Assembly (NCBI GenBank): GCA_035604275.1
Contig: DATNIU010000249.1
Span: forward strand, 2,587 to 66,586
DNA: 64,000 nucleotides
Direction of reading: 5' to 3'
DNA from: Streptosporangiaceae bacterium
GTDB taxonomy: Bacteria; Actinomycetota; Actinomycetes; Streptosporangiales; Streptosporangiaceae
The notes beneath the pieces are model-generated. The model made no database searches. It was not told where the DNA came from and worked only from the letters and a program-made list of their open reading frames with translations. The position numbers were made by a program, and so were the translations under genes. Within the stretch, counting starts at the first letter, position 1. Every line of letters starts with the position of its first letter. This document shows positions 8,662 to 29,873 of the stretch, piece after piece.

Positions 8662-9510
8662 ATGGAGACAACGCTGCGGCCCGGGCGGATTTCCCCGCCT
8701 CGCCAGGTTCCCGCGCACATCCAGCCCCCCGAGTACGTGGGCAAGCGGTACCCGAGGACCGGCGAGCCTGATGTCAAGGACGCCGACACCATCGAGCGGA
8801 TGCGAGTGGCCGGCCGGATAGCCGCCCAGGCCCTGGCCGAGGTCGGTGCTCACGTGGAACCCGGGATCAGCACCGATGAGCTTGACCGGATCGGGCACGA
8901 GTTCCTCTGCGACCACGGCGCCTATCCGAGCACTCTCGGCTACCGGGGCTACCCGAAGTCGCTGTGCTCGTCGCTCAACGAGGTCATCTGTCACGGCATC
9001 CCCGACGACACGGTCATCGTCGACGGCGACATCGTCAACATCGACATCACCGCCTACATCGGCGGCGTGCACGGCGACACCAACGCGACCTTCCTGGCCG
9101 GCGCCGTCGACGAGGAATCCCGGCTGCTGGTCGAGCGGACCCGCGAGGCCACGATGCGCGGCATCAAGGCGGTGGCGCCCGGCCGGGCGCTGAACGTCAT
9201 CGGCCGGGTGATCGAGTCGTACGCGCGGCGGTTCGGCTACGGCGTCGTCCGCGACTTCACCGGGCACGGCATCGGGACGACGTTCCACTCCGGCCTGATC
9301 GTCCCGCACTTCGACGATCCCTCGGTCAGCGTCGTCATGGAACCCGGCATGACCTTCACGATCGAGCCGATGCTCACCCTCGGCACGATCGACTACGAGA
9401 TCTGGGCCGACGGCTGGACCGCCGTGACCAGGGATCGCAAGCGCACCGCGCAGTTCGAGCACACAATTCTCGTCACCGCGGACGGGCACGAGATCCTGAC
9501 CCTGCCGTAA
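8662..9510 (+). CDS. map: Type I methionine aminopeptidase (mycobacterial MapB-like, with N-terminal extension)
   Basis: PEYVGK...[19 protein letters not shown]...[29 protein letters not shown]...[22 protein letters not shown]...FTGHGIG...FTIEPM...TAQFEHT. Confidence 0.95.
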
Positions 9511-12156: not shown

Positions 12157-12317
12157 AGTTGCCTCACGGTACGGACGCCGGCCCGGGCGGTCCAGTGCCG
12201 AAGGTCCCGCCGGCACCACCGGACGACCCGTGACACTAACCGGAACCTGGACTTACACTCAGGCCAAACCGGGCAAACGACCAGGCGGTTATCCGTCAGG
12301 GCGCTCGGAGGACCACG

Positions 12318-14072
12318 GTGACGGCCCCGCAGCCTTGGAGGTACCCGGTGTCCGCACGCAGAGCCAATCCCCGCGTCCTTGCCGTCGCTCGCGGCGACGA
12401 GCCGGCCGACCTGCTGATCACCGGCGGCCGGGTCTTCGTGCCCGGCACCAGGGAGTGGATCGACACCGACCTCGCCGTGGCGGCTGGCGTGATCGCCGGC
12501 TGGGGCCCGCGCGAGGCACGCGAGGTTGCCGACGTCTCCGGCGCGGCCCTGACCCCGGGCTTCATCGACGCTCACATGCACCTGGAGTCGACCAAGCTCT
12601 GGGTCGATGAGTTCGTCAGGGCCGTGCTGCCGCATGGCACGACGGCGGTCGCCGCCGACCCGCACGAGATCGCCAACGTGTTCGGGGTCGCGGGCGTGGC
12701 GGCGCTGGCACAGGCCTCCCGCGGCCTGCCGTTCACCTTCGGGATCTGCGCGTCTAGCTGCGTGCCAGCGTCGCCGTTCGAGAGCCCGGGAGCGGAGGTC
12801 CACACCGCGGAGGTACGCAGGCTCTTCGACGAGCTCGGCGCGATCGGGCTCGCCGAGGTGATGAACTACCCGGGCGTCGTCGCCGGCGATCCCGAGCTGC
12901 TCGCGAAGATCGCCGCCGCCGGTGACCTTCGGGTGGACGGCCACGCGCCGGGACTGACCGGCCGGCAGCTTGACGCCTACCTGGCGGCCGGGGTCGAGTC
13001 CGATCACGAGTGCACGACGGCCGACGAGGCGGCGGAGAAGCGCCGCAAGGGCATGTGGATCTTCGCCAGGCAGGGCTCGGCGAGCAGGAACCTGGCGGCG
13101 CTGATCCCGCTCGTGCTCCAGCACGGGACCGAGCGAGTGGCGCTCTGCACCGACGACCGTGAGCCGGACACGATCTTCAGCGAGGGCCACGTCGACGACT
13201 GCGTCAGGCTGGCGGTCTCCTGCGGTGTCCGCCTGGAGGACGCTCTGGTGCTGGCGACATCCAACCCGGCCGGTTATCACAACTTCGATCACCTCGGCTG
13301 GCTGTCGCCCGGCTATCAGGCCGACGTGCTCTGCTTCGACTCACTCGACCGGCTGTCGCCGGTCATGGTCTATCAGGCGGGAACCCTGGTCGCCGAGCAC
13401 GGCCGCGCGATCGACGGCGCCGTGCCCGCCGCCCCGGCGCCCGCGTGGATGCGCCACTCGGTGCACCTGGCCGAGCCGCCCGGCCCTGCCGCCCTGACCC
13501 TGGCACCGCCGGCCGGCGGGCTTGCCAGGGTCATCGGGATCGAGCCGGACACGCTCTCGACCAGGCACCTGATCCTCGACGTGACACAAACCCCGGAGGG
13601 AATCGCCAGGATCGGGGTCGTCGAGCGCCATCACGAGACCGGCCGGATCGGCCTCGGCTACGTCCACGGCTTCGGGCTGGCCCGCGGCGCCATCGCCTCG
13701 ACCGTGGCGCACGACGCGCACAACTGCATGGTCGTCGGCGCCCTGGACGCGTCGGGGCCCGCCGACATGGCCTCGGCCATCGCCAGGCTGGCCGAGATCG
13801 GCGGCGGCCAGGTGGCGGTGCTCGACGGCCGCGTTATCGCCGAGGTGCCGCTGCCGGTCGGCGGGCTGATGAGCGATCGGCCGGTCGCCGCGGTGGCCGC
13901 GGAGGTCGAGGCCGTCGAGCACGCGGCGGCCACCGTGCTCGGCGTCGGCATCGCGACCCCGTTCATGCACCTGAGCTTCCTCGGCCTGTCGGTGATCCCC
14001 GAGCTGAGGATCACCGATCGCGGCCTGGTCGACGTGAACAGGTTCGAGCTGACCGCGGTGGCCGCGAGCTGA
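12318..14072 (+). CDS. ade: Adenine deaminase
   Basis: GFIDAHMHLESTKLWVDEFVRAVLPHGTTAVAADPHEIANVFG...SSCVPASPFESPGA...HECTTADEAAEKRRKGMWI; length 584 aa. Confidence 0.9.
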   Translation: MTAPQPWRYPVSARRANPRVLAVARGDEPADLLITGGRVFVPGTREWIDTDLAVAAGVIAGWGPREAREVADVSGAALTPGFIDAHMHLESTKLWVDEFVRAVLPHGTTAVAADPHEIANVFGVAGVAALAQASRGLPFTFGICASSCVPASPFESPGAEVHTAEVRRLFDELGAIGLAEVMNYPGVVAGDPELLAKIAAAGDLRVDGHAPGLTGRQLDAYLAAGVESDHECTTADEAAEKRRKGMWIFARQGSASRNLAALIPLVLQHGTERVALCTDDREPDTIFSEGHVDDCVRLAVSCGVRLEDALVLATSNPAGYHNFDHLGWLSPGYQADVLCFDSLDRLSPVMVYQAGTLVAEHGRAIDGAVPAAPAPAWMRHSVHLAEPPGPAALTLAPPAGGLARVIGIEPDTLSTRHLILDVTQTPEGIARIGVVERHHETGRIGLGYVHGFGLARGAIASTVAHDAHNCMVVGALDASGPADMASAIARLAEIGGGQVAVLDGRVIAEVPLPVGGLMSDRPVAAVAAEVEAVEHAAATVLGVGIATPFMHLSFLGLSVIPELRITDRGLVDVNRFELTAVAAS

Positions 14073-14150: not shown

Positions 14151-15635
14151 TCAGGCTTCGGGCAGCACCGGAGTCGCCTCGCCCTCGGCCCGGACGGTCC
14201 TGGCAGCCAGCACGTAATACACGATGCCGCCGACGATCAGCCCCATGAACACGCTGAAGTCCGAGCCGAACGAACCGCCGATCCGGCTGGCGAGCGGCCC
14301 CTCGTACGACAGCGCGGTGGAGCTGAACGCGTTCAGCCATACCGCGGCCGCGATCATCCCGACCACCTGGGCGATGATCGCCGGCCAGAAGACGCCGCCG
14401 CGGCGGTAGTACCGGCCGCGCTCGTTCAGCAGGCCGCCGGTGTCGTAGCGGTTCTTCCGCAGCCACGAGTCGATCAGGTAGATCGCGCACCACGGCCCGA
14501 GCCAGACGATGATGAACAGCAGGAAGGCCGCGAGCAGGCTGAAGAACTTTCCGGAGAAGATCGCGTATGCCGTGAACCCGCCGCACACCACCGTGTCGAT
14601 CGCGACGCACTGCACTCGCTTCAGCTTGGGGATCAGGCTCTGCAGCGTGACGCCAGACGAGTACAGGTCGATGGTGTTGATCGCGAACAACTGGAAGATC
14701 GCGACGATCAGGAACGGGACGATGAACCAGGACGGGAACCCCTGGGTCAGGCCGGCGATGCCCTGGACGCTCGTGATGCCGGGCACGCCGGTAGCTATCG
14801 CCGCTCCGAGTACCTCAAGCAGCGCCGAGGCGATGCCCCCGCCGAGCGCCACTGCCATCACGATCCGCTTCCTGTCGGCGCCCGGCGGCAGATAACGGGA
14901 GTAGTCGTTGGCGTTCTCGGTCCAGCCGAGGCCTCCGGCCGAGATGACCACCGCGAGGAAGATCATCACCGAGCCCCAGGGCGCCCCGTGCGCGGGCACA
15001 TGCAGGTTCACCTTCGACGTCGTCAGGATCGCCATGATCACGAACAGGGCGACGAACGGCAGGGTCAGCCAGCGCAGCACCTTCAGCACGGCAGCGTGAC
15101 CGAGGGTCGGCAGGAGCGCCTGGATCGCTACCGCGATGACAATGATGACGATCTTGGCCGGAGTGCCGGACACCAGCTTGTACCGGTCGCCGATCGCGAT
15201 CACGGCCAGCACGACGAACGCGATGCCCTCGATCTCGAATCCGACCTGAGTCACCCAGTTGAAGAACGACGGCAGCCGGTTCCCGTGCGGCCCGAACGGA
15301 GCGCGGCTGATCGCGAAGGTTGTGGTACCTGCCCGCGGCCCCTGCAGACTAGCCAGGCCGGTCAGAACGTAGAAGAAGTTGCCGACAATGATCATGGTGA
15401 CGGCCTGGGCGAACGACAGCCCGAAAATGAGCACCGCGAGCGCGCCATAGAGCACGAACTCGACATTCCACACCGCTCCGGCCCACATCCAGAACAGGCC
15501 GGACGGCTTTCCCCACCGATGATCGAGCGGTACGTACTCGATCCCGCGCTGCTCGATGCTGGCGACCGGCGGCGGTACGCCGCCGTCGAGCACCGCGCTT
15601 GACCCGGCGCTGCCCCGCTCCGCTGCGCTTCCCAT
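14151..15635 (-). CDS. NCS1-family purine/cytosine permease
   Basis: 494 aa with about 12 TM segments: RGIEYVPLDHRWGKPSGLFWMWAGAVWNVEFVLYGAL...NANDYSRYLP. Confidence 0.9.
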   Translation of the reverse strand: MGSAAERGSAGSSAVLDGGVPPPVASIEQRGIEYVPLDHRWGKPSGLFWMWAGAVWNVEFVLYGALAVLIFGLSFAQAVTMIIVGNFFYVLTGLASLQGPRAGTTTFAISRAPFGPHGNRLPSFFNWVTQVGFEIEGIAFVVLAVIAIGDRYKLVSGTPAKIVIIVIAVAIQALLPTLGHAAVLKVLRWLTLPFVALFVIMAILTTSKVNLHVPAHGAPWGSVMIFLAVVISAGGLGWTENANDYSRYLPPGADRKRIVMAVALGGGIASALLEVLGAAIATGVPGITSVQGIAGLTQGFPSWFIVPFLIVAIFQLFAINTIDLYSSGVTLQSLIPKLKRVQCVAIDTVVCGGFTAYAIFSGKFFSLLAAFLLFIIVWLGPWCAIYLIDSWLRKNRYDTGGLLNERGRYYRRGGVFWPAIIAQVVGMIAAAVWLNAFSSTALSYEGPLASRIGGSFGSDFSVFMGLIVGGIVYYVLAARTVRAEGEATPVLPEA

Positions 15636-15918: not shown

Positions 15919-18861
15919 TCAGGCCGGGCCGCCCTCCTCGCGCAGCGCCCGCCACACCCGCTCGGGGGTGAACGGGATGGTGCTGATCGCGACCCCGGTG
16001 GCGTCCAGGATCGCGTTCCTGACCGCGGGAGCGACTCCCACGGTCGGAATCTCGCCGACCGCCTTCGCCCCGAACGGGCCGGACGGCTCCATCGTCTGAA
16101 TCAGGAATACCTCGGTGTCCGGAGCGTCATCGGCACGGTAGATCCAGTACGGACCGAGCCTGCCGTTCACCGGCCGGCCCTCGCCGTCGAGCACCAGCTC
16201 CTCGCAGAGCGCGTAGCCGAGCGCCATCAGCACGCCGCCTTCCACCTGGCCGCTCGCGGTCAGCGGATTGATCGGCACACCGCAGTCCACGGCGGTCACG
16301 ACCTTGACGACGGTGACCTGGCCGGTCTCGACATCCACCTCGACCTCAGCGACCTGGGCCGCGAACGGCGACGGCGACTCCCTGGCCAGGTACGACGCGG
16401 TGCCCATGATCTGCTCCTGGTCCTGCTCGTGCAGCACGTGCAGCGCCAGGTCGGCCAGCGGCACCGAGCGGCCGTCGGCCGCCCAGGCACAGCGGTCGCG
16501 CAGCTCGATCGGGGCCGATTCGTCAAGTGAAAGCATCCGCGCGGCCCGCTGCGCGATCCGCGCCCGCGCCGCCTCCGCCGCTTGCTTGGCGGCCATGCCG
16601 GTGATGTACGTGGTGCCCGACGCGTAAGCGCCCACGTCGAACGGCGTGAGATCGGTATCAGCGGCGTACACGATGATGTCGTCCACTCCGACGCCGAGCA
16701 CCTCGGCCGCGATCTGGGCGACCACGGTGTCGGCCCCGGTTCCCAGGTCCGTGCCGCCGATCATCAGGTTGAACGATCCGTCGTCGTTCATCTTGATGAA
16801 GGCCGCGCCCATGTCGACGAACGGGATGCCCGAGCCCATCACGCACAGCGCGAACCCGATTCCGCGCCGGATGCCCGGCCGGTCAGCCGGGCGCCTGAAC
16901 GACTCGTCACCGCGCCGGTGCCAGCCGATCGCGCGCAGCGCCTGCGCCGCGCATTCCTCGGTGCCGCAGCTGGTGATCCGCGGCAGGTCCTGCACCGCGA
17001 CGTCCTCGACCCCGCCGCGCTCGCCGAGCCGCGGCGCGATGTCGAAAGAATCGCCGAGCCCGACCCAGTTGCGCCGGCGCAGCTCGACCGGGTCGATCCG
17101 AAGCGCCCTGGCGATGTCATCGAGATGGGACTCGAGCGCGAAGACGCCCTGCGGCGCGCCGTAGCCGCGCATGGCCCCGGCCACCAGCCGGTTCGTGTAC
17201 ACGACGTCGCACTGGTAGCGCTTGGCCGGGCAGTTGTAGGAGGACAGGCCACGCAGCCCGGTCACGGACTGCACGGTGAAGCCGTGCACGCCGTAGGCGC
17301 CGGTGTTGGCGACCACCTTCATGTCCTGGGCCAGCAGCTTCCCGTCACGGCTGACCCCGGTGCGGAAGGTGATCGTCTGCCTGTGCCTGGTGCGCGAGGA
17401 GGCGAACTCCTCGTCACGGCTGAGCTCCAGGCGCACCGGGCGGCGGGTGGCCAGCACCAGAAGACCGACGATGTCCTCGATCAGCATCTCCTGCTTGCCG
17501 CCGAAACCGCCGCCGATCCGCGGCTTGATCACGCGGATCCGCCTGACCGGCAGGCCGACCAGCGGGGCGACCATGCGCCGGATGTGGAACGGCACCTGGG
17601 TGGAGGTGCGCAGAACCAGCCGGTCGTCGGGGTCCAGCCAGCCGATCGTGACATGCGGCTCGATCGCGCAGTGCTGTACCTGATGGGTATGGAAGGTCTG
17701 CTCGAAGACGTGATCGGCCCCGGCCAGCGCGGCCTCCATGTCGGTCACGGTCCGGCCCTCGATGTGCGAGCTGATGTTGCGGGCGGCGTCGTGGATGCCG
17801 ACCGAGTCCGGCTCGTCGTGGATGACCGGCGCCCCTGGCGCCAGCGCCTCGATCTCGTCGAGCACCGCGGGCAGGACCTGGTAGGTCACCTTGATCCGGC
17901 GGCAGGCCTCCTCGGCGAGCTCGACCGTCTCCGCTGCCACCGCGGCTACCCGGTCGCCGACGTGGCGGACCTTGTCGTCGAAGCTGACCTGGTCCCACGG
18001 ATACGGATTCGGCCAGCTCTGGCCGCCCGAGGCGTACTTCACCCGGGTGGTGTTCAGGTGGTGGAGCACCGCGTGCACCCCGGGCAGCGCCCGCGCCTCC
18101 GCATCGTCGATCGCGACGATCCGGGCGTGCGCGTGCGGGCTGCGCAGCACCTTGGCGTACAGCATCCCGCGCGGCCGCACATCGTCGGTGAAGGCCGGGT
18201 GGCCCTTCACCAGCCTGAGCGCGTCGACCTTGCGCTCCGGCTGGCCGACGACGGCGGTCGGCGTCACCTCCGGCGACGCCACGACGCGCGGCAGCGCGGA
18301 GGGCGCCGCATGATCTCCGGCGGCATCCGGCCCCGGTCCCGCCAGGCCCCGGCCGGCCAGCGGCTCGACCAGCACCGGCTGAACCGGGCCCGGCTTCTCG
18401 CCGCGCAGCAGCGCCGCGGCCCGCCGTACCGCCTCCACTACCTTCACGTAACCGGTCTCGCGATCGAGGATGCCGGACAGGGCATCGCGGATCTCCGCCT
18501 CGCCAGGGTCGGGATCGCGCTCAGCAAGCGCCTTGGCGGCCAGCACCATGGCGCCGGCCGAGTACCCGGACTGGAGCGCGCCGACCTCGACAAAGGCCTC
18601 CTGGATCGGGTGCAGCTCGCCGGTCGCCGCATCCAGCGACTCCACGGTCGTCACCTCGTGGCCGTCGGCCTGCGCAGCGAGCAGCACGTCGGCGCAGACC
18701 AGCCGGCCGTCCAGGAGCACGGCGGCCGCGCCGGTCTCGCCGGTGCCCGACCCGAACCGCACGCTGGCGAAGCCCTCGCGCCGGAGCAGCTCGAGCAGCG
18801 TGTCCCCGGGCTCGCAGCCGAGCTCGCGGACGCGGCCGTTGACGGTGATCCTGACGTCCAT
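15919..18861 (-). CDS. XdhD-like fusion: degenerate [2Fe-2S]-fold domain plus molybdopterin-binding hydroxylase domain
   Basis: The N-terminus aligns to the ferredoxin-like plus second [2Fe-2S] domains but lacks 7 of 8 Cys ligands (details under findings). The Moco part looks normal: IGGGFGGKQE, AGAMRGYGAPQ, GAKAVGEIPTVGVAPAVRNAILDATG. Confidence 0.9.
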   Translation of the reverse strand: MDVRITVNGRVRELGCEPGDTLLELLRREGFASVRFGSGTGETGAAAVLLDGRLVCADVLLAAQADGHEVTTVESLDAATGELHPIQEAFVEVGALQSGYSAGAMVLAAKALAERDPDPGEAEIRDALSGILDRETGYVKVVEAVRRAAALLRGEKPGPVQPVLVEPLAGRGLAGPGPDAAGDHAAPSALPRVVASPEVTPTAVVGQPERKVDALRLVKGHPAFTDDVRPRGMLYAKVLRSPHAHARIVAIDDAEARALPGVHAVLHHLNTTRVKYASGGQSWPNPYPWDQVSFDDKVRHVGDRVAAVAAETVELAEEACRRIKVTYQVLPAVLDEIEALAPGAPVIHDEPDSVGIHDAARNISSHIEGRTVTDMEAALAGADHVFEQTFHTHQVQHCAIEPHVTIGWLDPDDRLVLRTSTQVPFHIRRMVAPLVGLPVRRIRVIKPRIGGGFGGKQEMLIEDIVGLLVLATRRPVRLELSRDEEFASSRTRHRQTITFRTGVSRDGKLLAQDMKVVANTGAYGVHGFTVQSVTGLRGLSSYNCPAKRYQCDVVYTNRLVAGAMRGYGAPQGVFALESHLDDIARALRIDPVELRRRNWVGLGDSFDIAPRLGERGGVEDVAVQDLPRITSCGTEECAAQALRAIGWHRRGDESFRRPADRPGIRRGIGFALCVMGSGIPFVDMGAAFIKMNDDGSFNLMIGGTDLGTGADTVVAQIAAEVLGVGVDDIIVYAADTDLTPFDVGAYASGTTYITGMAAKQAAEAARARIAQRAARMLSLDESAPIELRDRCAWAADGRSVPLADLALHVLHEQDQEQIMGTASYLARESPSPFAAQVAEVEVDVETGQVTVVKVVTAVDCGVPINPLTASGQVEGGVLMALGYALCEELVLDGEGRPVNGRLGPYWIYRADDAPDTEVFLIQTMEPSGPFGAKAVGEIPTVGVAPAVRNAILDATGVAISTIPFTPERVWRALREEGGPA

Positions 18862-19601
18862 CAGCCGATCTCCCCGAGAACCCGCCTGGTGAGCACGGCC
18901 GCTATCGCGCGGCGGTACTCGCTCGACCCGCGGAAGTCGCCGGGCGGATCGAGATCGCCGGCCGCGTCCCGCTCCGCGGTCACGAGCACGGGAGCGGCCG
19001 CCACGCCGGTCAGGGCCAGCCGCCGCTGCCCGTCCGGCCTGCGCCGGGCGACCGCGGCGACGATCGGCCGGTCAGCCGGAGTGCGGGCCGTCCTGGCCGC
19101 GGCGGTGACGCCGCCGGTCTCGACGGCCACGGCCGTGATGATCCGGCCTGCCAGCGGCGAGCGGTCAGCGAGCAGCGCGGCGAGCGAGCGGTCATGCTCG
19201 CCGTCCCGGCCGGCCAGCCTGACCGTCCCGCCGTGTACCAGGAGCGCTGCCAGGAGCTCGCTGGACGGATCGGCGGTGGCCACGCAGCCGCCGACGGTTG
19301 CCATGGCCCGCAGGGTGCTCGGCTGCTCGCGGCGGGCCGCCTCCCGGATGGCGGCCGGGACCCGGGCGTCGTCGGCCAGCCGCTGGAGAGTCACGGTGGC
19401 GCCGATCAGGAGCCCGTCCGCGCCGTCGCGCTCGACGGCGCCGGTCGGCAGCGCCTGGAGGTCCACCACCACGACGGGCCCGGCCGGCCGGGCCGCGTTC
19501 ACCTTCGTCCCCCCGCCGATCACGACGGCCCCGGGACGGTCAAGGCACGCGAGCGCCTCGCTCAGCGTGGCTGGACGCAGGTACTCCGACACTCTGCTCA
19601 T
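18861..19601 (-). CDS. FAD-binding subunit of a molybdenum hydroxylase (short, YgfM/CoxM-like)
   Basis: YLRPATLSEALACLDRPGAVVIGGGTKV...LIGATVTLQRL...LRAMATVGGCVATADPSSELLAALLVHG...FRGSSEYRRAIAAVLTRR. Abuts the XdhD-like gene. Confidence 0.8.
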   Translation of the reverse strand: MSRVSEYLRPATLSEALACLDRPGAVVIGGGTKVNAARPAGPVVVVDLQALPTGAVERDGADGLLIGATVTLQRLADDARVPAAIREAARREQPSTLRAMATVGGCVATADPSSELLAALLVHGGTVRLAGRDGEHDRSLAALLADRSPLAGRIITAVAVETGGVTAAARTARTPADRPIVAAVARRRPDGQRRLALTGVAAAPVLVTAERDAAGDLDPPGDFRGSSEYRRAIAAVLTRRVLGEIG

Positions 19602-19737: not shown

Positions 19738-21288
19738 ATGACCGCTGCGGCACAGCCGTACCATCGGGCCATGACAGGTGTCCCCGCCGCCGCCCGCACC
19801 GGGCTTGATCAGCGCATCGCCGACCCGGGAGTCTACGACCGGGCCGTCGGCAGGTTCCGCGAGGCGCGGATCGTGCTCCCGACCTTCGCCGAGCTGGCCG
19901 ACCCGGGCCGCATCCCGGAGCGGGTCAGGCGCGCCCTGGCCGCCGTCGGGCCGGACGAGGCGCATCCGCTGAACCTGTTCCGGGTGCACTGGCACAACGG
20001 TCGCGACCGCGCCAGTCAGGTGGCCGTTCCGGTCTACGCCGAGCTGCCTGGCGAGCTGACCGGGGTGGACGCCAGGATCGTGGTCCTGATCGGCGAGACG
20101 TTCCCGATGATCAGCGCGCACAAGGTGCTCGCCGCCTACGGCTGCCTGGCCCCGCGCGTGATCACCGGCCGGTTCGATCCCACGGCGAACCGGGCGATCT
20201 GGCCGTCCACCGGCAATTACTGCCGGGGCGGCGTGGCCATTTCCAGGCTCATGCACTGCCGGGGGGTCGCCGTGCTGCCCGAGGGAATGAGCCGCGAGCG
20301 GTTCGAGTGGCTCGAGGACTGGGTGACCGACCCGGGCGACATCATCAGGACGCCGGGCACGGAAAGCAACGTCAAGGAGATCTACGACAAGTGCGCCGAG
20401 CTGTCGCTGGACCCGGCCAACGTCGTGCTCAACCAGTTCGCCGAGTTCGGCAACCACCTCATCCACTACGCCTGCACCGGCCCGGCGCTGGCCCGGGTCT
20501 TCGACTCGATCCGCGGCGCCGACCCGGCGCTCCGGCTGCGCGCGTTCGTCTCCGCCTCGGGCTCGGCGGGCACGCTCGGCGCCGGTGACCACCTCAAGGA
20601 CGCCTGCGGCGCCGCGATCGTGGCCGTCGAGGCGCTGGAGTGCCCGACCATGCTCTACAACGGGTTCGGCGAGCACAACATCCAGGGGATCGGCGACAAG
20701 CACATCCCGCTGATCCACAACGTCATGAACACCGACATCGTGACCGCGGTCTCCGATCGGGCAACCGACCAGCTCGGCGTGCTGTTCAGCGCCCCGGCCG
20801 GCCTGGGTTACCTGCGGGGCAGGCGCCGCGTTCCCGAGCCGGCCCTGGCCGCGCTCTCCTCGTTCGGGCTGTCGAGCATCTGCAACATCCTGGCCGCGGT
20901 CAAGACCGCCAGGTACCTGCGGCTCGGCGCGCAGGACGTCGTCATGACGGTCGCCACCGACGGGGCGGCCATGTACGGCAGCGAGCGCGAGCAGGTCCTG
21001 GCCAGGGACTACCCGAAGGGCTTCGACGAGACGGATGCCGCGGAGGCGTTCGGCCGCTGGATGCTCGGGGCCGGCACCGACGACCTGCTCCAGGCGAGCA
21101 CGCGGGACCGGGAGCGCATCTTCGACCTCGGCTACTACACGTGGGTGGAGCAGCAGGGCGTGAGCGTGGCCGATTTCACGGCCCGGAGATCGCAGGCCTA
21201 CTGGGCGGAGCTGCGCACCAGGCTGGCCAGCTGGGACGCCCTGATCGGGGAGTTCAATGCCCGCACCGGGGTAATCGAGGACCTGTGA
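19738..21288 (+). CDS. Fold-type II PLP-dependent enzyme (cysteine synthase/Trp-synthase-beta superfamily) with a long C-terminal extension
   Basis: FPMISAHKVLAAYGCL (candidate PLP lysine), NYCRGGVAISR, SASGSAGTLGAGDHLK; 516 aa. Confidence 0.75.
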   Translation: MTAAAQPYHRAMTGVPAAARTGLDQRIADPGVYDRAVGRFREARIVLPTFAELADPGRIPERVRRALAAVGPDEAHPLNLFRVHWHNGRDRASQVAVPVYAELPGELTGVDARIVVLIGETFPMISAHKVLAAYGCLAPRVITGRFDPTANRAIWPSTGNYCRGGVAISRLMHCRGVAVLPEGMSRERFEWLEDWVTDPGDIIRTPGTESNVKEIYDKCAELSLDPANVVLNQFAEFGNHLIHYACTGPALARVFDSIRGADPALRLRAFVSASGSAGTLGAGDHLKDACGAAIVAVEALECPTMLYNGFGEHNIQGIGDKHIPLIHNVMNTDIVTAVSDRATDQLGVLFSAPAGLGYLRGRRRVPEPALAALSSFGLSSICNILAAVKTARYLRLGAQDVVMTVATDGAAMYGSEREQVLARDYPKGFDETDAAEAFGRWMLGAGTDDLLQASTRDRERIFDLGYYTWVEQQGVSVADFTARRSQAYWAELRTRLASWDALIGEFNARTGVIEDL

Positions 21289-22673
21289 AAGCCGCGCTCT
21301 CCTCCATTCGGTGCGCTGGCTGCGGCTGGGTGCCGCCAGCCAGGCAGGCGTACCCCTTCCGGTGCGCTCGCGCGGACCACGATGACGTCGATCACGTCCT
21401 GGTCCGGATCCTCGACACCGCCGCCGCGCGCTTCCCCGGCGGCCTCGAGCCCGACCCGTTCGTCAGGTACCGGTCGCTCATGCACGCGTACCACATGGCG
21501 ATGGACGCGGGGCTGGGCGACGACGAGTACCAGCAGCTGATCGGGGCGCTCGAGCGGTCGGTGGCGGCCGTGGACGGGCGAGGGTTCGGGGTCACGCCGC
21601 TGAGCCGGAGCGCCGTGCTGAGTGACCGGCTCGGCTTCTCGCCGGCCGGCGGGGTCTGGGTCAAGGACGAGACGGCGAACGTGTCGGGCTCGCACAAGGG
21701 CCGTCACCTGATGGGCCTGCTGATCCACCTCGAGGTCGCCGAGCGGATCGGGCTGATCTCCGCCGGCGACCGTTCCGACCTGGCGATCGCGAGCTGCGGG
21801 AACGCCGCGCTCGCCGCGGCGGTCCTCGCCAGGGCGGGCGGCCGCAGGCTCCGGGTGTTCGTCCCGGTCGACGCGGAAGCGGGCGTCGTGGCCAGGCTGC
21901 GCCAGCTCGGCAGCGACGTGGTGCCCTGCCCGCGCGAGCCCGGCGCGGCCGGCGATCCCGCCTATCTGCGGCTCCGCGAGGAACTCGCGGCCGGGGCGGT
22001 GCCCTTCACCTGCCAGGGCAGCGAGAACGGCCTGGCGATCGAGGGCGGCCAGACCATCGCCTACGAGATCGCGTCGCAGCTGGCGGGCACCGGCCTGGAC
22101 CACATCGTGGTCCAGGTCGGCGGCGGCGCCCTCGCGAGCGCGTGCGCCGCCGGGCTGCGCGAGGCGGCTGAGCTCGGCGCGATCCCGGGCGAGCCCCGGC
22201 TGCACACCGTGCAGACCACCGGCGCGCACCCGCTCGAGCGCGCCTGCCGGCGAGTCAGGGCGCTCCTGCCGGCCGGCGGCGCCGGGCCGGTGCGCCGGGC
22301 CGACGCGGAGCGCGCGCTGGCGTCGGCCGCCAGGCACCGCTCGGCCTATATGTGGCCGTGGGAAAGCGAGCCGAAGAGCATCGCGACCGGGATTCTCGAT
22401 GACGAGACCTACGACTGGCGGGCCGTGGTCGGCGGCATGCTGACGACCGGCGGCCAGCCGCTGGTCGTCTCGGAGGACCGGCTGGCCGAGGCGAACGGGC
22501 TGGCCGCGATGACCGGCATCCCGGCGGACCCGACCGGATCGGCCGGCCTCGCCGGGCTGCTCGATCTGCGCGAGGCCGGGGTGGTCGCCGCGGACGAGCG
22601 CGCCGCCGTGCTGTTCACCGGCGTGCGCCGCGGCTCGGACACGGCCCCGCCGGGACCGGCGGACCGGGGGTGA
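21285..22673 (+). CDS. Threonine-synthase-like fold-type II PLP-dependent enzyme
   Basis: Cys-rich N-terminus IRCAGCGW...FRCAR, VKDETANVSGSHKGRHL, ASCGNAALAAA, VQVGGGALAS. GTG 21285 overlaps the preceding TGA; the track ORF start at 20640 is an artefactual extension. Confidence 0.75.
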   Translation: MKAALSSIRCAGCGWVPPARQAYPFRCARADHDDVDHVLVRILDTAAARFPGGLEPDPFVRYRSLMHAYHMAMDAGLGDDEYQQLIGALERSVAAVDGRGFGVTPLSRSAVLSDRLGFSPAGGVWVKDETANVSGSHKGRHLMGLLIHLEVAERIGLISAGDRSDLAIASCGNAALAAAVLARAGGRRLRVFVPVDAEAGVVARLRQLGSDVVPCPREPGAAGDPAYLRLREELAAGAVPFTCQGSENGLAIEGGQTIAYEIASQLAGTGLDHIVVQVGGGALASACAAGLREAAELGAIPGEPRLHTVQTTGAHPLERACRRVRALLPAGGAGPVRRADAERALASAARHRSAYMWPWESEPKSIATGILDDETYDWRAVVGGMLTTGGQPLVVSEDRLAEANGLAAMTGIPADPTGSAGLAGLLDLREAGVVAADERAAVLFTGVRRGSDTAPPGPADRG

Positions 22674-25276
22674 CGGCCATGGACTTCACGCTCAACGGCG
22701 CCGAGGTGTCGGCCGACGTCCGGGACGGGCAGCACCTGCTCGATGTGCTCAGGGAGGACTGCGGCATCACGTCCGTCAAGGACGGCTGCGCGCCCGAGGG
22801 CTCCTGCGGTGCCTGCACCGTGATCGTCGACGGCAAGGCCGTGGTCTCCTGCGCGCAGCCGGCCTCGCGCTTCGCCGGCCGGTCGGTCACCACCCAGGAA
22901 GGGCTCTGTGAGGCGGACCGGGAGCGCTGGGCCGACTGCTTCGTGGCCGCAGGCGCCTCCCAGTGCGGCTTCTGCTCGCCCGGCATCGTGATGAAGGCCG
23001 AGGCGCTGCTGGCCAAGACGCCCGAGCCGACCAGGGAGCAGGTAGCGGCTGGCCTGGCGGGCAACCTGTGCCGCTGCACCGGGTACGTCAAGATCATCGA
23101 CGCGATCATGCTGGCGGCCGGCGCCCGCCGGGGCGAGCCGCTGCCGCCGATCGACAACAGCGGCCGGGTGGGCTCGCCGACCGCCCGGTACCAGGGCCGG
23201 GAGCTCGCGCTCGGCGACAAGCCCTACATCAACGACATGACGATGCCGGGCATGCTGCACGGCGCGATCCGGTTCGCCGACCACCCGCGTGCCGTGGTGC
23301 TCGGCATCGACATCAGCCGCGCCGCCGCCCACCCGGGCGTGCTCGCCGTGCTCACCGCGGCCGACGTGCCCGGTGAGCGGGTGCAGGGAGAGATCACCAG
23401 GGACTGGCCGCAGCTCGTGGCGGTCGGCGAGACCACCAGGTACGTCGGTGACGTGATCGCGCTGGTAGCCGCCAGCGACCGGACCGCTGCGCGCGAGGCG
23501 GCGGCGCTCGTCGACGTCAGCTATGACGTCCTCGAGCCGGTCACCAGCCCGGCGCAGGCCATGTCCGGCGGCGCGCCCCGGCTGCACTCCCATGCGCCGG
23601 GAAACGTGCTCTCGGTCTCCCAGGTCAGGCGCGGCGACGTCGATGCCGCGCTCGCCGGTGCCGAGCACGTGCTGACCGAGACCTTCCAGACCCAGTTCAT
23701 CGAGCACGCCTTCCTTGAGCCTGAGTCATCGCTGGCGTATCCGATGGCCGGCGGCGGTGTCCATTTCTACTCCCAGGGCCAGGGCATCTGGAGCGACCGG
23801 CGCCAGGTCGCCAGCCTGCTCGGCCTGCCCGAGCACCAGGTGCTCGCCACCCTGGTCTCCAGCGGCGGGGCGTTCGGGGCCAAGGAGGACCTGGGCGTCC
23901 AGGGACACGCGGCGCTGCTTGCGATGCGCACTCACCGGCCGGTCAGGCTGACGCTGAGCCGGGCCGAGAGCATCCGCTTCCACGTCAAGCGGCATCCGCT
24001 CACCCTGACCTACACGGTGGGCTGCGATGCCGACGGCATGCTCCTCGGCGTGCGGGCACGGATCACCGGCGACACCGGCGCGTACGCCAGCGTCGGCGAC
24101 AAGGTCCTCGAGCGGGCCGCCGGGCACGCGTGCGGCGTCTACAAGTTCCCGGCCGTCGACATCGAGGCGCGCGCCGTCTACACGAACAACCCGCCCTGCG
24201 GCGCGATGCGGGGATTCGGCGCGAATCAGTCGAACTTCGCGATCGAGGGCATGCTCGACCGGCTGGCCGAGCGGACCGGGCTCGACGGCTGGGAGATCCG
24301 CTGGCGCAACGCGGTGGAGACCGGCGACGTATTCGGCACCGGCCAGCGCCTCGGTCCCGGCGTCGGCATCAAGCAGACGCTGCTCGCCGTCAGGGACGCC
24401 TACCGGTCCGCGCGGTACGCCGGCATCGGCTGCGCGGTGAAGAACACCGGCGTCGGCAACGGCCTGGCCGAGTACGGCAGGGTGATCCTGCGGCCCGAGG
24501 GCGACGGCACGGTGACCCTGTTCCACTCGTGGACCGAGATGGGCCAGGGCGTGCACACGGTGCTCATGCAGATCGCCTGCTCCGAGCTTGGCCTGACCCC
24601 GGACCAGGTGCGGGTGGTCGTCGAGACCAGCCGCGAGCTCGGCTGCGGCCAGACCACGGCATCACGCGCAACGGTGCTCGGCGGGCGTGCGGTCATCGAC
24701 GCGGCCGGCCGGCTGAAAGCCAGGATTAACGGGCGGCGCCTGGCTGATCTGGCGGGCCAGGAGTTCTATGGCGAGGTGCTGGTCGACTGGACCACCAGGC
24801 CCGGAACCGCCGCGGAGAACCCGGTCACTCACTTCGCGTACGGCTGGGCAACCCAGGTGGTCGTGCTCGACGACGAGGGCCGGATCGCGAAGGTCGTCGC
24901 CGCGCACGACGTCGGCAAGGTGATCAACCCCGTCCTGCTGGCCGGCCAGGTCGAGGGCGCCGTGCACATGGGGCTGGGTCACAGCCTGTCCGAGGAGTTC
25001 GTCGTGGAGAACGGGATCCCGGTCACCACGACGCTGAAGTCGCTGAACATCATCCCGCCGGCCGGAATGCCGCCGGTCGAGTGCGTCTTCGTCGAGGAGC
25101 ATCAGCCGGAGGGCCCCTACGGCGCGAAAGGGATCGGCGAGATCGGCCTGGTCCCGACCGCCAGCGCGGTGGCCGGCGCCCTGCGCGCCTTCGACGGCCG
25201 CTACCGGACCACGCTCCCGATGAAGGACTCCGCGGCGGCGGCAGCGGCGGTGCCCAGGCTGGCGCGCCGCCGATGA
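22670..25276 (+). CDS. [2Fe-2S] + molybdopterin-binding hydroxylase fusion (Desulfovibrio MOP/aldehyde-oxidoreductase-like architecture, no FAD domain)
   Basis: All eight Fe-S Cys are present: DGCAPEGSCGACTV...SC, QCGFCSPG, NLCRCTGY. Moco motifs: GGAFGAKED, PPCGAMRGFGANQ, GAKGIGEIGLVPTASAVAGAL. The start is GTG 22670 (GTGA overlap) or ATG 22679. Confidence 0.9.
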   Translation: MTAMDFTLNGAEVSADVRDGQHLLDVLREDCGITSVKDGCAPEGSCGACTVIVDGKAVVSCAQPASRFAGRSVTTQEGLCEADRERWADCFVAAGASQCGFCSPGIVMKAEALLAKTPEPTREQVAAGLAGNLCRCTGYVKIIDAIMLAAGARRGEPLPPIDNSGRVGSPTARYQGRELALGDKPYINDMTMPGMLHGAIRFADHPRAVVLGIDISRAAAHPGVLAVLTAADVPGERVQGEITRDWPQLVAVGETTRYVGDVIALVAASDRTAAREAAALVDVSYDVLEPVTSPAQAMSGGAPRLHSHAPGNVLSVSQVRRGDVDAALAGAEHVLTETFQTQFIEHAFLEPESSLAYPMAGGGVHFYSQGQGIWSDRRQVASLLGLPEHQVLATLVSSGGAFGAKEDLGVQGHAALLAMRTHRPVRLTLSRAESIRFHVKRHPLTLTYTVGCDADGMLLGVRARITGDTGAYASVGDKVLERAAGHACGVYKFPAVDIEARAVYTNNPPCGAMRGFGANQSNFAIEGMLDRLAERTGLDGWEIRWRNAVETGDVFGTGQRLGPGVGIKQTLLAVRDAYRSARYAGIGCAVKNTGVGNGLAEYGRVILRPEGDGTVTLFHSWTEMGQGVHTVLMQIACSELGLTPDQVRVVVETSRELGCGQTTASRATVLGGRAVIDAAGRLKARINGRRLADLAGQEFYGEVLVDWTTRPGTAAENPVTHFAYGWATQVVVLDDEGRIAKVVAAHDVGKVINPVLLAGQVEGAVHMGLGHSLSEEFVVENGIPVTTTLKSLNIIPPAGMPPVECVFVEEHQPEGPYGAKGIGEIGLVPTASAVAGALRAFDGRYRTTLPMKDSAAAAAAVPRLARRR

Positions 25277-26760
25277 GCACCCTGGCGCTCTGCGGAGCCA
25301 CCGTCGTAGTCAGCATCGATCCGGTGGAGCTGGCCGGCGCCGACGTGCTGATCGACGGTGACCGGATCGCGGCTGTCGGCCCGGCGCCTCCGGCCGTGCC
25401 GCGCCGGGACTGCTCGGGAACGCTGATCGTGCCGGGGAACGTCTGCGCGCATACTCACCTGTACTCGGCGCTGTCCAGGGGGCTGCCCTACCAGCTCCCG
25501 CCGCCGGAGAACTTCCTGCAGATCCTCCAGCGCATCTGGTGGCGGCTCGACCGCGCGCTCGACGAGCGGAGCATCCGCATGTCTGCTCTCATCGGCGGGC
25601 TGGACGCGCTGCTGGCCGGGACGACCACGGTCTTCGATCATCACGCCTCGCCGAATTTCATCGACGGCTCTCTCGACATCGTTGCCGAAGCGCTCGCCGA
25701 GCTCGGGCTGCGCTCGGTGCTGTGCTACGAGGTAACCGACCGGGACGGCGCGGCTGCGGCGGCGGCCGGCCTCGCCGAGAACAGCAGGTTCTGCAAAGCC
25801 AGCCGGCCGCTCGCCGGCGAGGACGCCAGGCGCCGGCCAGCCGGCCGGCCACTGCCCGGCGAAGGCGCCGGCTCGCATTCAGCCAGCTGGTCACCGCCTG
25901 GCAGGGACCCCGGCTCGCAGCCAGTCAGCGGGCCGCTGGCCCGCGGCCTGATCGGCGCGCACGCCTCGTTCACCCTGTCCGACGCGACGCTGGACGCGTG
26001 CGCGGGGACAGCCGCCGACGCCCGGGCCGGGGTGCACATTCACGTGGCCGAGGACGCCGCCGACCAGCGGGACGCGCGGGAGGCCCACGGGTGCTCCGTC
26101 GTGGACCGCCTGAACGCGGCTGGCGTGCTGACGGAGCACGCCCTGCTGGCGCACTGCGTGCACGTCGACGACCGCGAGCGGGACATCCTGCTCGCCTCTG
26201 GCGCGACAATCGCCCACAACGCGCGGAGCAACATGAACAACGGCGTCGGCTACAGCCCGGTCACCGCGAGCGGCGCTCAGATCCTGCCCGCGGGCGCCCG
26301 CGACCGGATCACGCTCGGCACCGACGGCATCGGAGGCGACATGATCACCGAATCCCAGGTCGCGTTCTTCCGGGCCAGGGAGGCGAGCGTCCGTACCCCG
26401 CAGTCGTGGCCGCTGGCCCGGCTCGCCGCATCCTCGCGCGCGGCCGGCCGGGCCTTCGGCGAGCCCGCGCTCGGCCGGATCGAGGCCGGCGCGCCCGCCG
26501 ACCTGGCCGTGCTCGACTACCCGGCGCCTGATCGGGTGTCGGTCGGCAGCCTGGCCGGTCACTGGCTCTTCGGCCTGTCGCCTGCCCACGTCAGGGACGT
26601 GCTGGTGGCCGGCGAGCTGGTCGTCGCCGACCGCCGCCCGACCCGCGTTGACACCGATCGGCTCGCGGCGGCGGCAGCCGCCGAGGTCGGCCGGCTGCGG
26701 GCCAGGCTGGCGGACATCCCGCCGCACGGCTTCACCCCCCGTGGCTGCGAGGCAAGATGA
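25273..26760 (+). CDS. SsnA-like amidohydrolase (cyclic amidohydrolase/aminohydrolase superfamily)
   Basis: [17 protein letters not shown]...FDHHASP...[10 protein letters not shown]...[13 protein letters not shown]...AHCVHV...[19 protein letters not shown] overlap with the upstream gene; the track start at 25081 is rejected. Confidence 0.8.
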
Positions 26761-27797
26761 CGATCACCTCAGCCGGCCGGGTGGCACTCTACCTGCAGGA
26801 CAAGCACCCGATCAGGGACGGCATGCGCTATGCCAGGTACGCCGAGTCGAAGGGGTTCGAAGCGGTGTGGCAGGCGGAGAGCAGGCTGGTCCGGGAGGCA
26901 ACGGTGCCGATGGCGGCCTACGCCGCGGTGACCAGCCGGATCAAGGTCGGCTCCGGCGTGATCCCGATCTGGACCAGGAACGTCAGCCTGCTCGCTGCGA
27001 CGTTCTCCACCCTGTCCGAGCTGGCCCCCGGCCGGATCATGATGGGGCTCGGCGCCTGGTGGGAGCCGCTGGCCGCCAAGGTCGGCGTGGACCGGCGCAG
27101 GCCGCTTCAGGCGATGCGCGAGGTCATCGAGGCGTCCAGGCAGCTGCTCGCGCTGCGGCGGGTGTCCTATCACGGGGAGTTCGTGCACCTCGACGACGTG
27201 GAGATCGATATCGTGCACGGCGACCGGTCGCCGCGCGAGGTGCCGATCTACATCGGCGCGACCGGCATGAAGATGATGGAGCTGGCCGGCGAGATCGCGG
27301 ACGGGGCGCTGCTCAACTACATGGTCAGTCCCGGCTACAGCCGGCGCGCGCTCGAGGCGCTCGCGGCAGGCGCGGAACGGGCCGGGCGCAGGGTCGAGGA
27401 GATCGACCGGCCTCAGCTGATCGTCTGCTCGGTCGACAACGACCGGGCCGCCGCGCTTGACCGGTCCAGGGAGCTGCTCACCCAGTACCTCGGGCAGCAG
27501 CCGCACATCATGAAGGCCAGCGGCGTCGATCCGGCGCTGATCGCGCGGATCGGCAAGATCCTGACCTGGCCGGCCGGCCCGGACGACATCCGGCGGGCGA
27601 TGCGGCTGGTGCCCGACGAGGCCGTCGAGATGATCTCGGCGTCCGGCACGCCCCGGGACTGCCAGGCAAAGGTCGCCGAGTACATCGCGGCGGGCGCCAC
27701 CTGCCCGGTCCTCTATCCGCTCGGCGACGACGTCGAGCTCATGATCGACACGTTCGCGCCCGGCGCGGCGCCCGCCAGGAGAACCGACAGCACCTGA
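26757..27797 (+). CDS. LLM-class (luciferase-like) oxidoreductase, probably F420-dependent
   Basis: [48 protein letters not shown]...[12 protein letters not shown]...[13 protein letters not shown]...[26 protein letters not shown]. Confidence 0.85.
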
Positions 27798-27810: not shown

Positions 27811-27890
27811 GCAGTGCTCGCCAGGCAGTGCCCGCCAAAGCAGTGCTCGCCAGGCATTGCCCGGCAAGCAAATGCCCGGCAGGCAATGCC
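27811..27890. promoter_or_regulatory. 29-bp direct repeat pair plus GGCA-N-TGCC palindromes at exact 29-bp spacing (27824, 27853, 27882); candidate operator array or internal promoter
   Basis: Read directly. This is the only sizeable gap in the 19738-30821 gene string. The presence of the repeats is certain; the regulatory role is inferred. Confidence 0.4.
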
Positions 27891-27914
27891 CGACACAGCA
27901 AAGGGGTGGCAGTC

Positions 27915-28868
27915 ATGCGAAGCTTTCTCGGCCGGGACATCCTGTCCCTGAAGGACATGGAGCGCGAGGAGTACTTTCAGATCTTCGGTGTCTGTGACAC
28001 GCTCCGGCCGTACGCGGCCGAGCGCAGGAACGGCGATCTGCTGAAGCACAAGACCCTGCTCACCGCGTTCTACCAGCCGAGCACGCGGACCCGGCTGGCC
28101 ACCGAGGCGGCGATGCACCGGCTCGGCGGGCACGTGCTCGGCTTCGCCGACGCGAAGATGACCAGGGCGGGCGACTTCTACCAGGAGTCGATCAAGGACA
28201 CGGTGCACATGCTGGAGTACTACGGCGACGTCATCGCGATGCGGCACTTCCAGGAGGGCGCGCCGGCCGAGGCGGCTCGCTGGGCATCGGTGCCGGTGAT
28301 CAACTGCGGTGACGGCTGGGGCCAGCACCCGACCCAGGTGCTCACCGACCTCTACACGATCTGGCGGGACCGGGGCACGCTCGACGGGCTCAGGGTGCTC
28401 TGCGTCGGCGACATGCGGATGCGCACCATGCACTCGATCCTGCACGCCATGTCGCAGTTCGACATGGAGGCCTTCGTCGTCGGGCCGCCCGAGATGTCGC
28501 TGCTGCCCGAGTTCAAGGCCGAGCTTGACCAGCGGAACACCCGGTACCGCGAGGTGGAGAGCGTCCAGGCCTGCATCGCGGACGCCGACGTCATCTACAT
28601 GGAACCCGTGATCCAGGCCGATTACACCCAGTCGCGGGTCGAGGCGAGCAAGGACAACCCCAGCACGCCGGCCGCCTACCGGGTAACCAGGGAGCTGCTG
28701 CGCGCGAAGGCCAAGAGCGACGCGATCATCCTGCACTCGCTGCCCAGGATGGACGAGCTGCCGCCGGACGTGGACGCCACCCGGCACAACCGCTACTGGA
28801 CCGAGGCGTTCAACGGCGTGGTGCTGCGGATGGCGCTGCTCGCGCTCGTCCTCGGCGCGGCCGAGTAG
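27915..28868 (+). CDS. Aspartate-carbamoyltransferase-fold enzyme with a non-canonical acceptor pocket
   Basis: QPSTRTRLATE, QHPTQVLTD, RTMHS, LHSLPRMDELPPDVD, and a C-terminus collinear with PyrB. PyrB's YMTRVQKER is YMEPVIQAD here. ATG 27915 is preceded by AAGGGG. Confidence 0.85.
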   Translation: MRSFLGRDILSLKDMEREEYFQIFGVCDTLRPYAAERRNGDLLKHKTLLTAFYQPSTRTRLATEAAMHRLGGHVLGFADAKMTRAGDFYQESIKDTVHMLEYYGDVIAMRHFQEGAPAEAARWASVPVINCGDGWGQHPTQVLTDLYTIWRDRGTLDGLRVLCVGDMRMRTMHSILHAMSQFDMEAFVVGPPEMSLLPEFKAELDQRNTRYREVESVQACIADADVIYMEPVIQADYTQSRVEASKDNPSTPAAYRVTRELLRAKAKSDAIILHSLPRMDELPPDVDATRHNRYWTEAFNGVVLRMALLALVLGAAE

Positions 28869-28879
28869 GGGGCGCCGGC

Positions 28880-29857: not shown

Positions 29858-29873
29858 CCGGAGGCGGATCGGA

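Follow-up and report, generated by a model that had tools for sequence, protein, structure and literature searches.

In the reductive uric acid pathway, urate is converted to 2,8-dioxopurine by XdhD-YgfM in Escherichia coli or by XdhAC in Clostridium sporogenes, the 2,8-dioxopurine is in turn reduced, SsnA opens its ring, and the breakdown ends at pyruvate (PMC12507026; bioRxiv 10.1101/2025.04.24.650524; PMC12990295). The first of these activities is known for these two enzymes only (PMC12507026; bioRxiv 10.1101/2025.04.24.650524). We report here on an XdhD-type gene in a stretch of 64,000 nucleotides from a Streptosporangiaceae bacterium (assembly GCA_035604275.1, contig DATNIU010000249.1, positions 2,587 to 66,586), called the window below, whose 980-residue product has lost all the cysteines expected to hold its two [2Fe-2S] clusters. 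The source genome is a metagenome-assembled genome of the Actinomycetota, 83.5% complete; the regional GC content is about 66-76%, mostly 70-76%, and the loci nearest to the gene come from uncultured Actinomycetes.

The E. coli enzyme (b2881/b2880; models TIGR03313 and TIGR03312) is the enzyme described by Li et al. in 2025 as reducing urate to 2,8-dioxopurine, or ‘yanthine’ (PMC12507026). The window protein has the same fused architecture and is 36% identical to and collinear with E. coli XdhD, so that its description as XdhD-like in an initial annotation, made from the sequence alone, was correct. Both proteins have a cysteine at 0 of 8 iron-sulfur (FeS) ligand positions, read QSGY in place of QCGxC, and carry an equivalent glutamate loop (E606 in E. 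coli). Both genes are preceded by that of a flavin adenine dinucleotide (FAD) subunit, and have SsnA, carbamoyltransferase, carbamate kinase and purine permease genes nearby. They differ in that the cysteine loss is phylogenetically separate, with replacements STAD/SSDE in the window protein versus DADS/SNSD in E. coli, in that an F420-type luciferase-like (LLM) oxidoreductase takes the place of YgfK in the window, and in that no YqeB or SelD was found in the 83.5%-complete genome. XdhAC of C. sporogenes, or DOPDH, likewise joins an FeS-like and a molybdenum cofactor (Moco) part in one polypeptide, and we assume the same type of first-step reaction. By its description, which is what we compared, DOPDH has iron-sulfur binding domains and no FAD subunit, does not use reduced nicotinamide adenine dinucleotide (phosphate), NAD(P)H, and is selenium-dependent (bioRxiv 10.1101/2025.04.24.650524), whereas the window protein has no ligands and is accompanied by a FAD subunit.

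The closest relatives outside Actinomycetota are XdhD-like proteins of Chloroflexota (loci L015 to L089, 48-57% identity), which share the architecture, the loop motif, and the YgfM-like, LLM and SsnA neighbours. These proteins show every ligand state, whereas the clade of the window protein is uniformly Cys-free. The aldehyde oxidoreductases of Desulfovibrio gigas and D. desulfuricans (MOP; 1sij, 1dgj) also fuse FeS domains and Moco part in one chain, but they hold two [2Fe-2S] clusters on eight cysteines, have no FAD subunit and act on another substrate. Finally, 4-hydroxybenzoyl-coenzyme A (CoA) reductase (1rm6), the best PDB sequence match of the Moco part (E = 2e-107), is, like the enzyme proposed here, a reductive dehydroxylase of the xanthine oxidase family. 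Its solution is the opposite one, with separate FeS and FAD subunits and a full relay. It also has an extra [4Fe-4S] cluster.

Ligand columns of the 980-residue protein

In the xanthine oxidase family, the textbook intramolecular electron wire runs through Moco, Fe/S I, Fe/S II and FAD. The family hallmark of two [2Fe-2S] clusters on eight cysteines is absent from the 980-residue protein, where all eight ligand columns are occupied by other residues: S38, T43, A46 and D58 for Fe/S II, and S98, S101, D133 and E135 for Fe/S I. The gene and the parts of its product are as follows.

15919..18861, minus strand: XdhD-type molybdenum hydroxylase/reductase gene, 980 residues (open reading frame and translation); domain order by Pfam: cluster-free FeS-like module, linker, a/b hammerhead, MoCoBD_1, MoCoBD_2
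18637..18861, minus strand: ferredoxin-like domain, former Fe/S II site, residues 1-75, ligand columns S38, T43, A46, D58
18397..18636, minus strand: helical FeS-like domain, former Fe/S I site, residues 76-155, ligand columns S98, S101, D133, E135
18250..18396, minus strand: linker rich in Pro, Gly and Ala, residues 156-204, of low conservation and with a disordered part in the model
15919..18249, minus strand: molybdenum cofactor part, residues 205-980 (Pfam)

The columns were set by three alignments, BLASTP against the 868-residue paralogue encoded elsewhere in the window, HMMER against 1dgj, and MAFFT of 166 fused relatives. Residues 1-155 (18397-18861) align without rearrangement to the [2Fe-2S] domains of the paralogue, to 1dgj and to PF01799; BLASTP, HMMER and Pfam thus agree with the collinearity first noticed over about 155 residues, and the motifs quoted at that time are all present. 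QCGxC has become QSGYS (S98, S101) and LCRCTGY has become LDRETGY (D133, E135). The ligand-column codons are 18748-50, 18733-35, 18724-26 and 18688-90 for Fe/S II, and 18568-70, 18559-61, 18463-65 and 18457-59 for Fe/S I. The initial annotation had counted seven ligands lost out of eight. The loss itself holds and the count does not: the cysteine thought to survive, Cys56 of ‘RLVCAD’, lies two residues upstream of the fourth ligand column, in which Asp58 is found, and all eight are lost. Nor does that ligand belong to cluster I, as had been written, since by the usual nomenclature it pertains to Fe/S II, in the N-terminal ferredoxin-like domain. Position 56 is moreover variable among 120 close homologues (Cys in 5, Ser in 77, Ala in 30).

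At least 16 base changes would be required to bring back the eight cysteines, and the 120 homologues of at least 71% identity all have 0/8 ligands. For these two reasons, a sequencing, assembly or frameshift artefact is excluded, including the base or frameshift errors that the initial annotation had foreseen as a possible source of hidden cysteines. As no ligand of the eight is left, the canonical FAD-Fe/S II-Fe/S I-Moco relay is absent, and the early statement that it cannot exist in this protein is borne out.

The replacing residues are themselves conserved in the 120 homologues. S38 is present in 120/120, T43 in 118/120, A46 in 114/120 and D58 in 112/120, S98 is nearly invariant, and D133 and E135, as well as Q97, G99, Y100 and R134, are found in 120/120 each. 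Q97 and R134 are in addition invariant across 58 diverse relatives, those with intact clusters included; together with G137 they are common to all relatives and kept in the 980-residue protein. In solved structures, the glutamine of the QCGxC motif contacts the pterin.

The rest of the protein has the domain set of the xanthine oxidase/molybdenum hydroxylase family, that is, the a/b hammerhead and two Moco-binding domains (PF01315, 2e-26; PF02738, 3e-77; PF20256, 6e-72). Within the N-terminal module, PF01799 was detected with 69.5 bits (cut-off 30.3), and PF00111 was not detected by the Pfam search. Pfam and the column read-out both found the Moco-domain motifs intact, as first described. The equivalent of the catalytic glutamate, E937 in ‘AKAVGEIP’, is kept in 54/55 relatives; by motif it would correspond to bovine E1261, and Q457 and R565 are, likewise by motif, the equivalents of bovine E802 and R880. 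At the R880-equivalent position, E. coli XdhD (L009:11317-14187) and proteins of the P0147 type have Gln, and the actinobacterial and Chloroflexota proteins have Arg. E614, in the ‘LGERGG’ loop, aligns with E606 of E. coli XdhD. The catalytic and the substrate-loop glutamates are each present in 120/120 close homologues. In the proposal of Li et al., it is E606 that directs the enzyme to 2,8-dioxopurine (PMC12507026).

The best NCBIfam model for the protein is TIGR03313, with 678.4 bits, under the cut-off of 1101.9; E. coli was the sole control genome over this cut-off. An AlphaFold2 model had a mean predicted local distance difference test score (pLDDT) of 93.4, with residues 1-170 at 86-96 and residues 174-183 of the linker below 50. 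Its top fold match, over the whole chain, was to the Desulfovibrio aldehyde oxidoreductases 1dgj/1sij (target-normalised TM-score, TMt, of 0.88-0.89).

Distribution and origins of the Cys-free state

Whether such degeneration is general in enteric XdhD had been left as a question. The RefSeq record of E. coli K-12 XdhD has no cysteine in its first 189 residues; the eight ligand columns are filled, in order, by D, A, D, S, S, N, S and D. The ligand-scoring alignment suggested at the outset thus gives 0/8 for the window protein and for the E. coli one; judged by sequence, ligand loss is a trait of XdhD, enteric type included, and it recurs in the clade.

An exhaustive representative search yielded 150 diverse relatives. 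All eight cysteines are present in 38 of 47 fused relatives, and every fused relative outside the XdhD clade with aligned ligand columns has eight. We also scanned genomes with a Moco-domain pattern, unbiased for the N-terminus, and obtained 5 actinobacterial and 75 Chloroflexota loci. Both clusters are lost in the 5/5 Actinomycetota loci. In Chloroflexota, all eight ligands are kept in 43 loci, those of cluster II only are lost in 25, those of cluster I only in 1, and both sets in 6.

The genes lacking cluster II alone (L030, L034, L038, L050, L053 and others, match at about 10001-13000) mostly read D-S/T-D-G in the four columns; they keep cluster I and encode half-wired enzymes, often still beside a YgfM-like gene. 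The reverse situation is seen in a Thermoflexia homologue (L036:10001-12934), where cluster II cysteines are kept and those of cluster I are S, D, S, E. One XdhD-like gene from a record titled Pleurocapsa sp., Cyanobacteriota (L022), nests with 99% support in a Chloroflexota (Anaerolineae) clade; the contig was perhaps binned wrongly or acquired by recent transfer.

The Moco part by itself was used for an IQ-TREE tree, in which Cys-free proteins fall into three groups: the Actinomycetota clade, one Chloroflexota clade nested among sequences with all eight ligands, and the E. coli type. Loss of cluster II alone occurs in at least four places, and the tree requires eight state changes overall. 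Approximately unbiased (AU) tests rejected a single clade of all Cys-free rows (p = 4e-79), of Actinomycetota plus Chloroflexota (p = 0.008), and of the E. coli type plus Chloroflexota (p = 1e-8). Since regain of four to eight cysteines at the exact positions is implausible, these trees argue for at least three independent complete losses of the ligands. A domain swap was considered in place of repeated loss and rejected: the tree of the N-terminal module, computed without the ligand columns, agrees with the Moco tree, though it is poorly resolved, and does not unite the degenerate forms. A second locus scan used degenerate motifs as bait, and consequently shows the spread of the E. coli type and not its frequency relative to intact forms. 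This type is widespread, with 80 loci in gut and rumen Oscillospiraceae, Spirochaetes and Chloroflexi, and ygfM lies directly upstream in 66 of 69 of them.

Similar swaps are found in the independent lineages. QCGYC is replaced by QSGY followed by S, N or D, and LCRCTGY by L-D/S-R-E-TGY, or by FSRDAGW in E. coli. For cluster II, Chloroflexota have GDExGxTGSD in place of GCxxGxCGAC, and the E. coli sequence resembles theirs. Because the change from Cys to Glu at position 135 takes three base changes, an acidic residue beside the invariant R134 seems to be under selection. Mean identity among the 120 actinobacterial homologues is 72% in the ferredoxin-like domain, 78% in the helical domain, 76% in the Moco part and 46% in the linker. 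N-terminal identity divided by Moco identity gives 0.91 in the all-eight, cluster-II-lost and both-lost classes alike, and the ratio of YgfM to Moco identity is 0.56, 0.68 and 0.60, respectively. Equal ratios across classes rule out relaxed selection on the cluster-free domains or on YgfM.

A compensating relay was searched for among columns kept in all-eight proteins and changed in at least two Cys-free lineages. No common gain or chain of Cys, His or aromatic residues was found, and, apart from the ligand columns themselves, the scan picked up no more than a few sites of no special note (Y408W, S710A). There was no compensating FeS site on the flavoprotein either: YgfM-like open reading frames of every class have about 2 Cys and no CxxC motif.

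The enzyme family and the pathway are already known. Our literature searches on XdhD/YgfM and its pathway found no paper mentioning the Cys-free state of XdhD or its repeated, stepwise origin, and the two 2025 papers defining the pathway do not discuss ligand loss (PMC12507026; bioRxiv 10.1101/2025.04.24.650524). RefSeq still describes XdhD as a fusion with an ‘Fe-S binding subunit’, and NCBIfam describes TIGR03313 as a ‘Mo/Fe-S-binding subunit’. A branch of the family would thus have dropped its wire several times, while selection on its cluster-free domains and on the flavoprotein did not weaken, and this wire-less branch includes the E. coli enzyme, whose NADH-dependent activity is published. 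The enzyme performs the first step of gut uric acid disposal and is being engineered into probiotics against gout (PMC12507026), which gives its real electron donor practical value. Ligand loss makes the electron supply of this medically topical enzyme directly testable, and the natural series (all eight ligands, II lost, I lost, both lost) is ready experimental material.

Proposed role of the cluster-free domains and possible electron supply to molybdenum

We propose that the 980-residue protein is the catalytic subunit of a molybdenum enzyme of XdhD (DOPDH) type, which would act in reductive uric acid breakdown and be made together with the YgfM-like flavoprotein. Its most likely reaction is the 6-dehydroxylation of urate to 2,8-dioxopurine, the choice of urate being inferred from the gene context described in the last section. 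The two N-terminal ‘iron-sulfur’ domains would be cluster-free scaffolds that keep the fold and the shared residues; judging by solved structures in the xanthine oxidase family, they probably serve to keep the pterin in place and as the docking site of the flavoprotein, and this role would explain why they have been retained. We consider this identification of the enzyme, together with the reading of the two domains as scaffolds without clusters, likely to be right, an opinion that does not extend to the electron route. Given that the ligands were repeatedly lost while the domains and the flavoprotein stayed equally constrained, the canonical relay appears to be dispensable for the XdhD type of enzyme.

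As to the route, we tentatively prefer that the Mo centre be reduced from the side of the substrate funnel, by a second substrate or a small reductant in a ping-pong manner, with YgfM-FAD not wired to the Mo centre. The relay, lost again and again with no loss of constraint elsewhere, would then not lie on the productive path. About equally likely is an entry of electrons that still occurs at FAD, NADH reducing YgfM-FAD and the electrons reaching the pterin and Mo without clusters, either by slow tunnelling over a long range across the cluster-free domains or through a movement of domains that would bring the flavin close to Moco. E. coli XdhD, with 0/8 Cys, co-purifies with YgfM and makes 2,8-dioxopurine from urate with NADH (PMC12507026), and an AlphaFold3 heterodimer has been reported with an interface predicted TM-score (ipTM) of 0.94 (PMC12990295). 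Linkage points in the same direction: ygfM is found upstream within 3 kb in 9 of the 10 both-lost loci with upstream data, and within 150 bp in 6; added to this are its position in the E. coli-type loci given above and its translational coupling in the window. The constraint on YgfM is unchanged after ligand loss, and YgfM keeps the glycine motifs for FAD. Distance speaks against this route: the relay of solved members of the family consists of three hops of about 8, 12 and 15 Å, and without clusters the gap between flavin and pterin is far over the limit of catalytically useful tunnelling (about 14 Å), and the Cys-free lineages have no conserved aromatic or Cys/His chain to bridge it. Repeated loss of the relay would also be strongly deleterious if it were on the productive path, and the published E. 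coli assay is an end-point measurement by liquid chromatography-mass spectrometry, with no rate given (PMC12507026).

Several observations weigh against the proposals that we prefer. With regard to the substrate, the 980-residue protein scores under the TIGR03313 cut-off and is only 36% identical to E. coli XdhD, which moreover has Gln at the position of Arg565, so that urate is assigned here by indirect means. With regard to reduction from the funnel side, E. coli XdhD-YgfM uses NADH in vitro, and YgfM is tightly linked, translationally coupled, and as constrained as in wired relatives; each of these suggests that FAD still matters. DOPDH of C. sporogenes does not oxidise xanthine, which weakens the idea of a purine ping-pong (bioRxiv 10.1101/2025.04.24.650524). 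Lastly, the trees behind the repeated losses come from ‘quick’ IQ-TREE searches and contain long branches, and the groups submitted to the AU tests were named after the first tree had been seen.

A more radical form of funnel-side reduction, which we find rather improbable, is that Mo of XdhD-type enzymes cycles between two substrates at one site. These enzymes would then be purine transhydroxylases or dismutases, without any net flow of electrons. A purine or an aldehyde would reduce Mo, urate would then be dehydroxylated, and YgfM-FAD would be a priming or repair module only. If true, the changed mechanism would have left its mark in evolution as the repeated convergent loss of one or both clusters. 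The classical anaerobic dismutation of xanthine by xanthine oxidase would be a precedent, for which a literature search gave nothing usable. A different chemistry, also among the explanations first offered, may apply.

Supply of electrons in trans, either by the 868-residue paralogue in a mixed complex, as the initial annotation had envisaged, or by a partner, ferredoxin-like or linked to F420, that docks close to the Mo domain, appears less probable again. The window does encode an intact-FeS Mo enzyme that lacks a FAD subunit (22670-25276) and a PucD-like Mo subunit that is an orphan (9679-12219), 3 of 5 actinobacterial loci have a relative of the paralogue within a distance of 10 kb, and clostridial DOPDH takes its electrons from a donor other than NAD(P)H (bioRxiv 10.1101/2025.04.24.650524). 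However, the cluster-free N-terminal module fills the position that any FeS subunit acting in trans would need, and no such paralogue lies near the Cys-free loci of Chloroflexota. In the established dimer structures of the family, a long distance separates the cofactor chain of one protomer from that of the other. We found no evidence in this analysis for transfer via the paralogue, and E. coli XdhD-YgfM is active without added partners (PMC12507026).

A non-redox pseudo-enzyme or structural subunit, another of the explanations first offered, is very improbable. It would agree with the loss of all FeS ligands and with a score under the family equivalog cut-off, but it conflicts with the published NADH-dependent reduction of urate by the equally Cys-free, catalytically active E. 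coli XdhD-YgfM (PMC12507026). In addition, the Mo domains are intact, with both glutamates kept in 120/120, the Moco part is 76% identical among homologues, and a permease gene accompanies the XdhD-like gene in a catabolic operon. We give least credit of all to sites in which Ser, Thr, Asp and Glu side chains still bind a [2Fe-2S] cluster or some other redox metal, in spite of the near invariance of S38, S98, D133 and E135, the convergence of independent lineages on Ser and acidic residues, and the selection for an acidic side chain suggested by the three-base change at 135: Ala or Gly also occur in ligand columns (A46 here, G or Q at the fourth column in Chloroflexota), no His or Cys has been recruited nearby, no [2Fe-2S] site is known that has neither Cys nor His ligands, and the acidic residues flank the invariant R134, more plausibly as part of a salt-bridge network filling the cavity.

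Neighbouring genes and the pathway

A set of genes for reductive uricolysis (SsnA, LLM, carbamoyltransferases, carbamate kinase, PLP (pyridoxal phosphate) enzymes and permease) lies within 15 kb of the XdhD-like gene. The surrounding genes are listed below.

12318..14072, plus strand: adenine deaminase (PF13382, PF01979)
14151..15635, minus strand: permease of the purine/cytosine family, directly downstream of the XdhD-like gene (PF02133, 6e-37)
18861..19601, minus strand: YgfM-like FAD-binding subunit, 246 residues (PF00941, 7e-20; best NCBIfam model TIGR03312)
19738..22673, plus strand: two genes for fold-type II PLP enzymes (PF00291)
22670..25276, plus strand: 868-residue paralogue with all eight [2Fe-2S] cysteines (TIGR03311, selenium-dependent xanthine dehydrogenase, 978 bits, cut-off 830)
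25081..26760, plus strand: SsnA-type amidohydrolase (NF005540 / TIGR03314, about 1e-115, match from residue 72)
26757..27797, plus strand: luciferase-like (LLM) oxidoreductase, probably F420-dependent (PF00296; F420 LLM models of NCBIfam)
27828..30821, plus strand: two carbamoyltransferases, the second YgeW-like, and a YqeA-like carbamate kinase (NCBIfam)

The gene adjoining that of the 980-residue protein had been called YgfM-like, and PF00941, TIGR03312 and the FAD glycine motifs support that name. The protein scores 80.5 bits against TIGR03312, under the cut-off of 241.5, and two glycine motifs, GGGT and TVGG, can be aligned with those of CoxM. The stop codon TGA of its gene overlaps the ATG of the XdhD-like gene (TGATG), so that the two are translationally coupled. 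It has only 2 Cys and no FeS motif, and there is no separate small FeS subunit gene adjoining the XdhD-like operon in the window.

SsnA is a marker enzyme of the reductive uricolytic pathway (PMC12507026). The true start of the SsnA-type gene is probably near 25290. The LLM gene occupies the slot held by YgfK in E. coli; Li et al. describe Chloroflexota clusters with a luciferase-family reductase in place of YgfK, and SsnA also in Actinomycetota (PMC12507026), and the gene order of the window agrees with these variant clusters. The two PLP enzyme genes, which differ from each other, sit where enteric clusters have a single diaminopropionate ammonia-lyase, YgeX; their NCBIfam matches are weak, to threonine synthase and cysteine synthase models.

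The 868-residue paralogue, whose ligand read-out is CCCCCCCC, is placed in a distant clade of the family tree. It scores over the TIGR03311 cut-off, yet no TIGR03309 (YqeB) and no SelD over cut-off were found in the genome, of which about 16% is missing. Either YqeB and SelD are hidden in the missing 16%, or the clade of the paralogue is not selenium-dependent.

On the other side of the XdhD-like gene, the Mo subunit of a PucD-type xanthine dehydrogenase (9679-12219, minus strand) matches TIGR03196 with 837 bits, above cut-off. No FeS or FAD subunit gene lies beside it; its neighbours are a methionine-aminopeptidase-like M24 gene (8662-9510, plus strand) and the adenine deaminase gene. Further on, two adjacent genes (6450-8310, minus strand) each encode a protein with two YbjQ (PF01906) domains.

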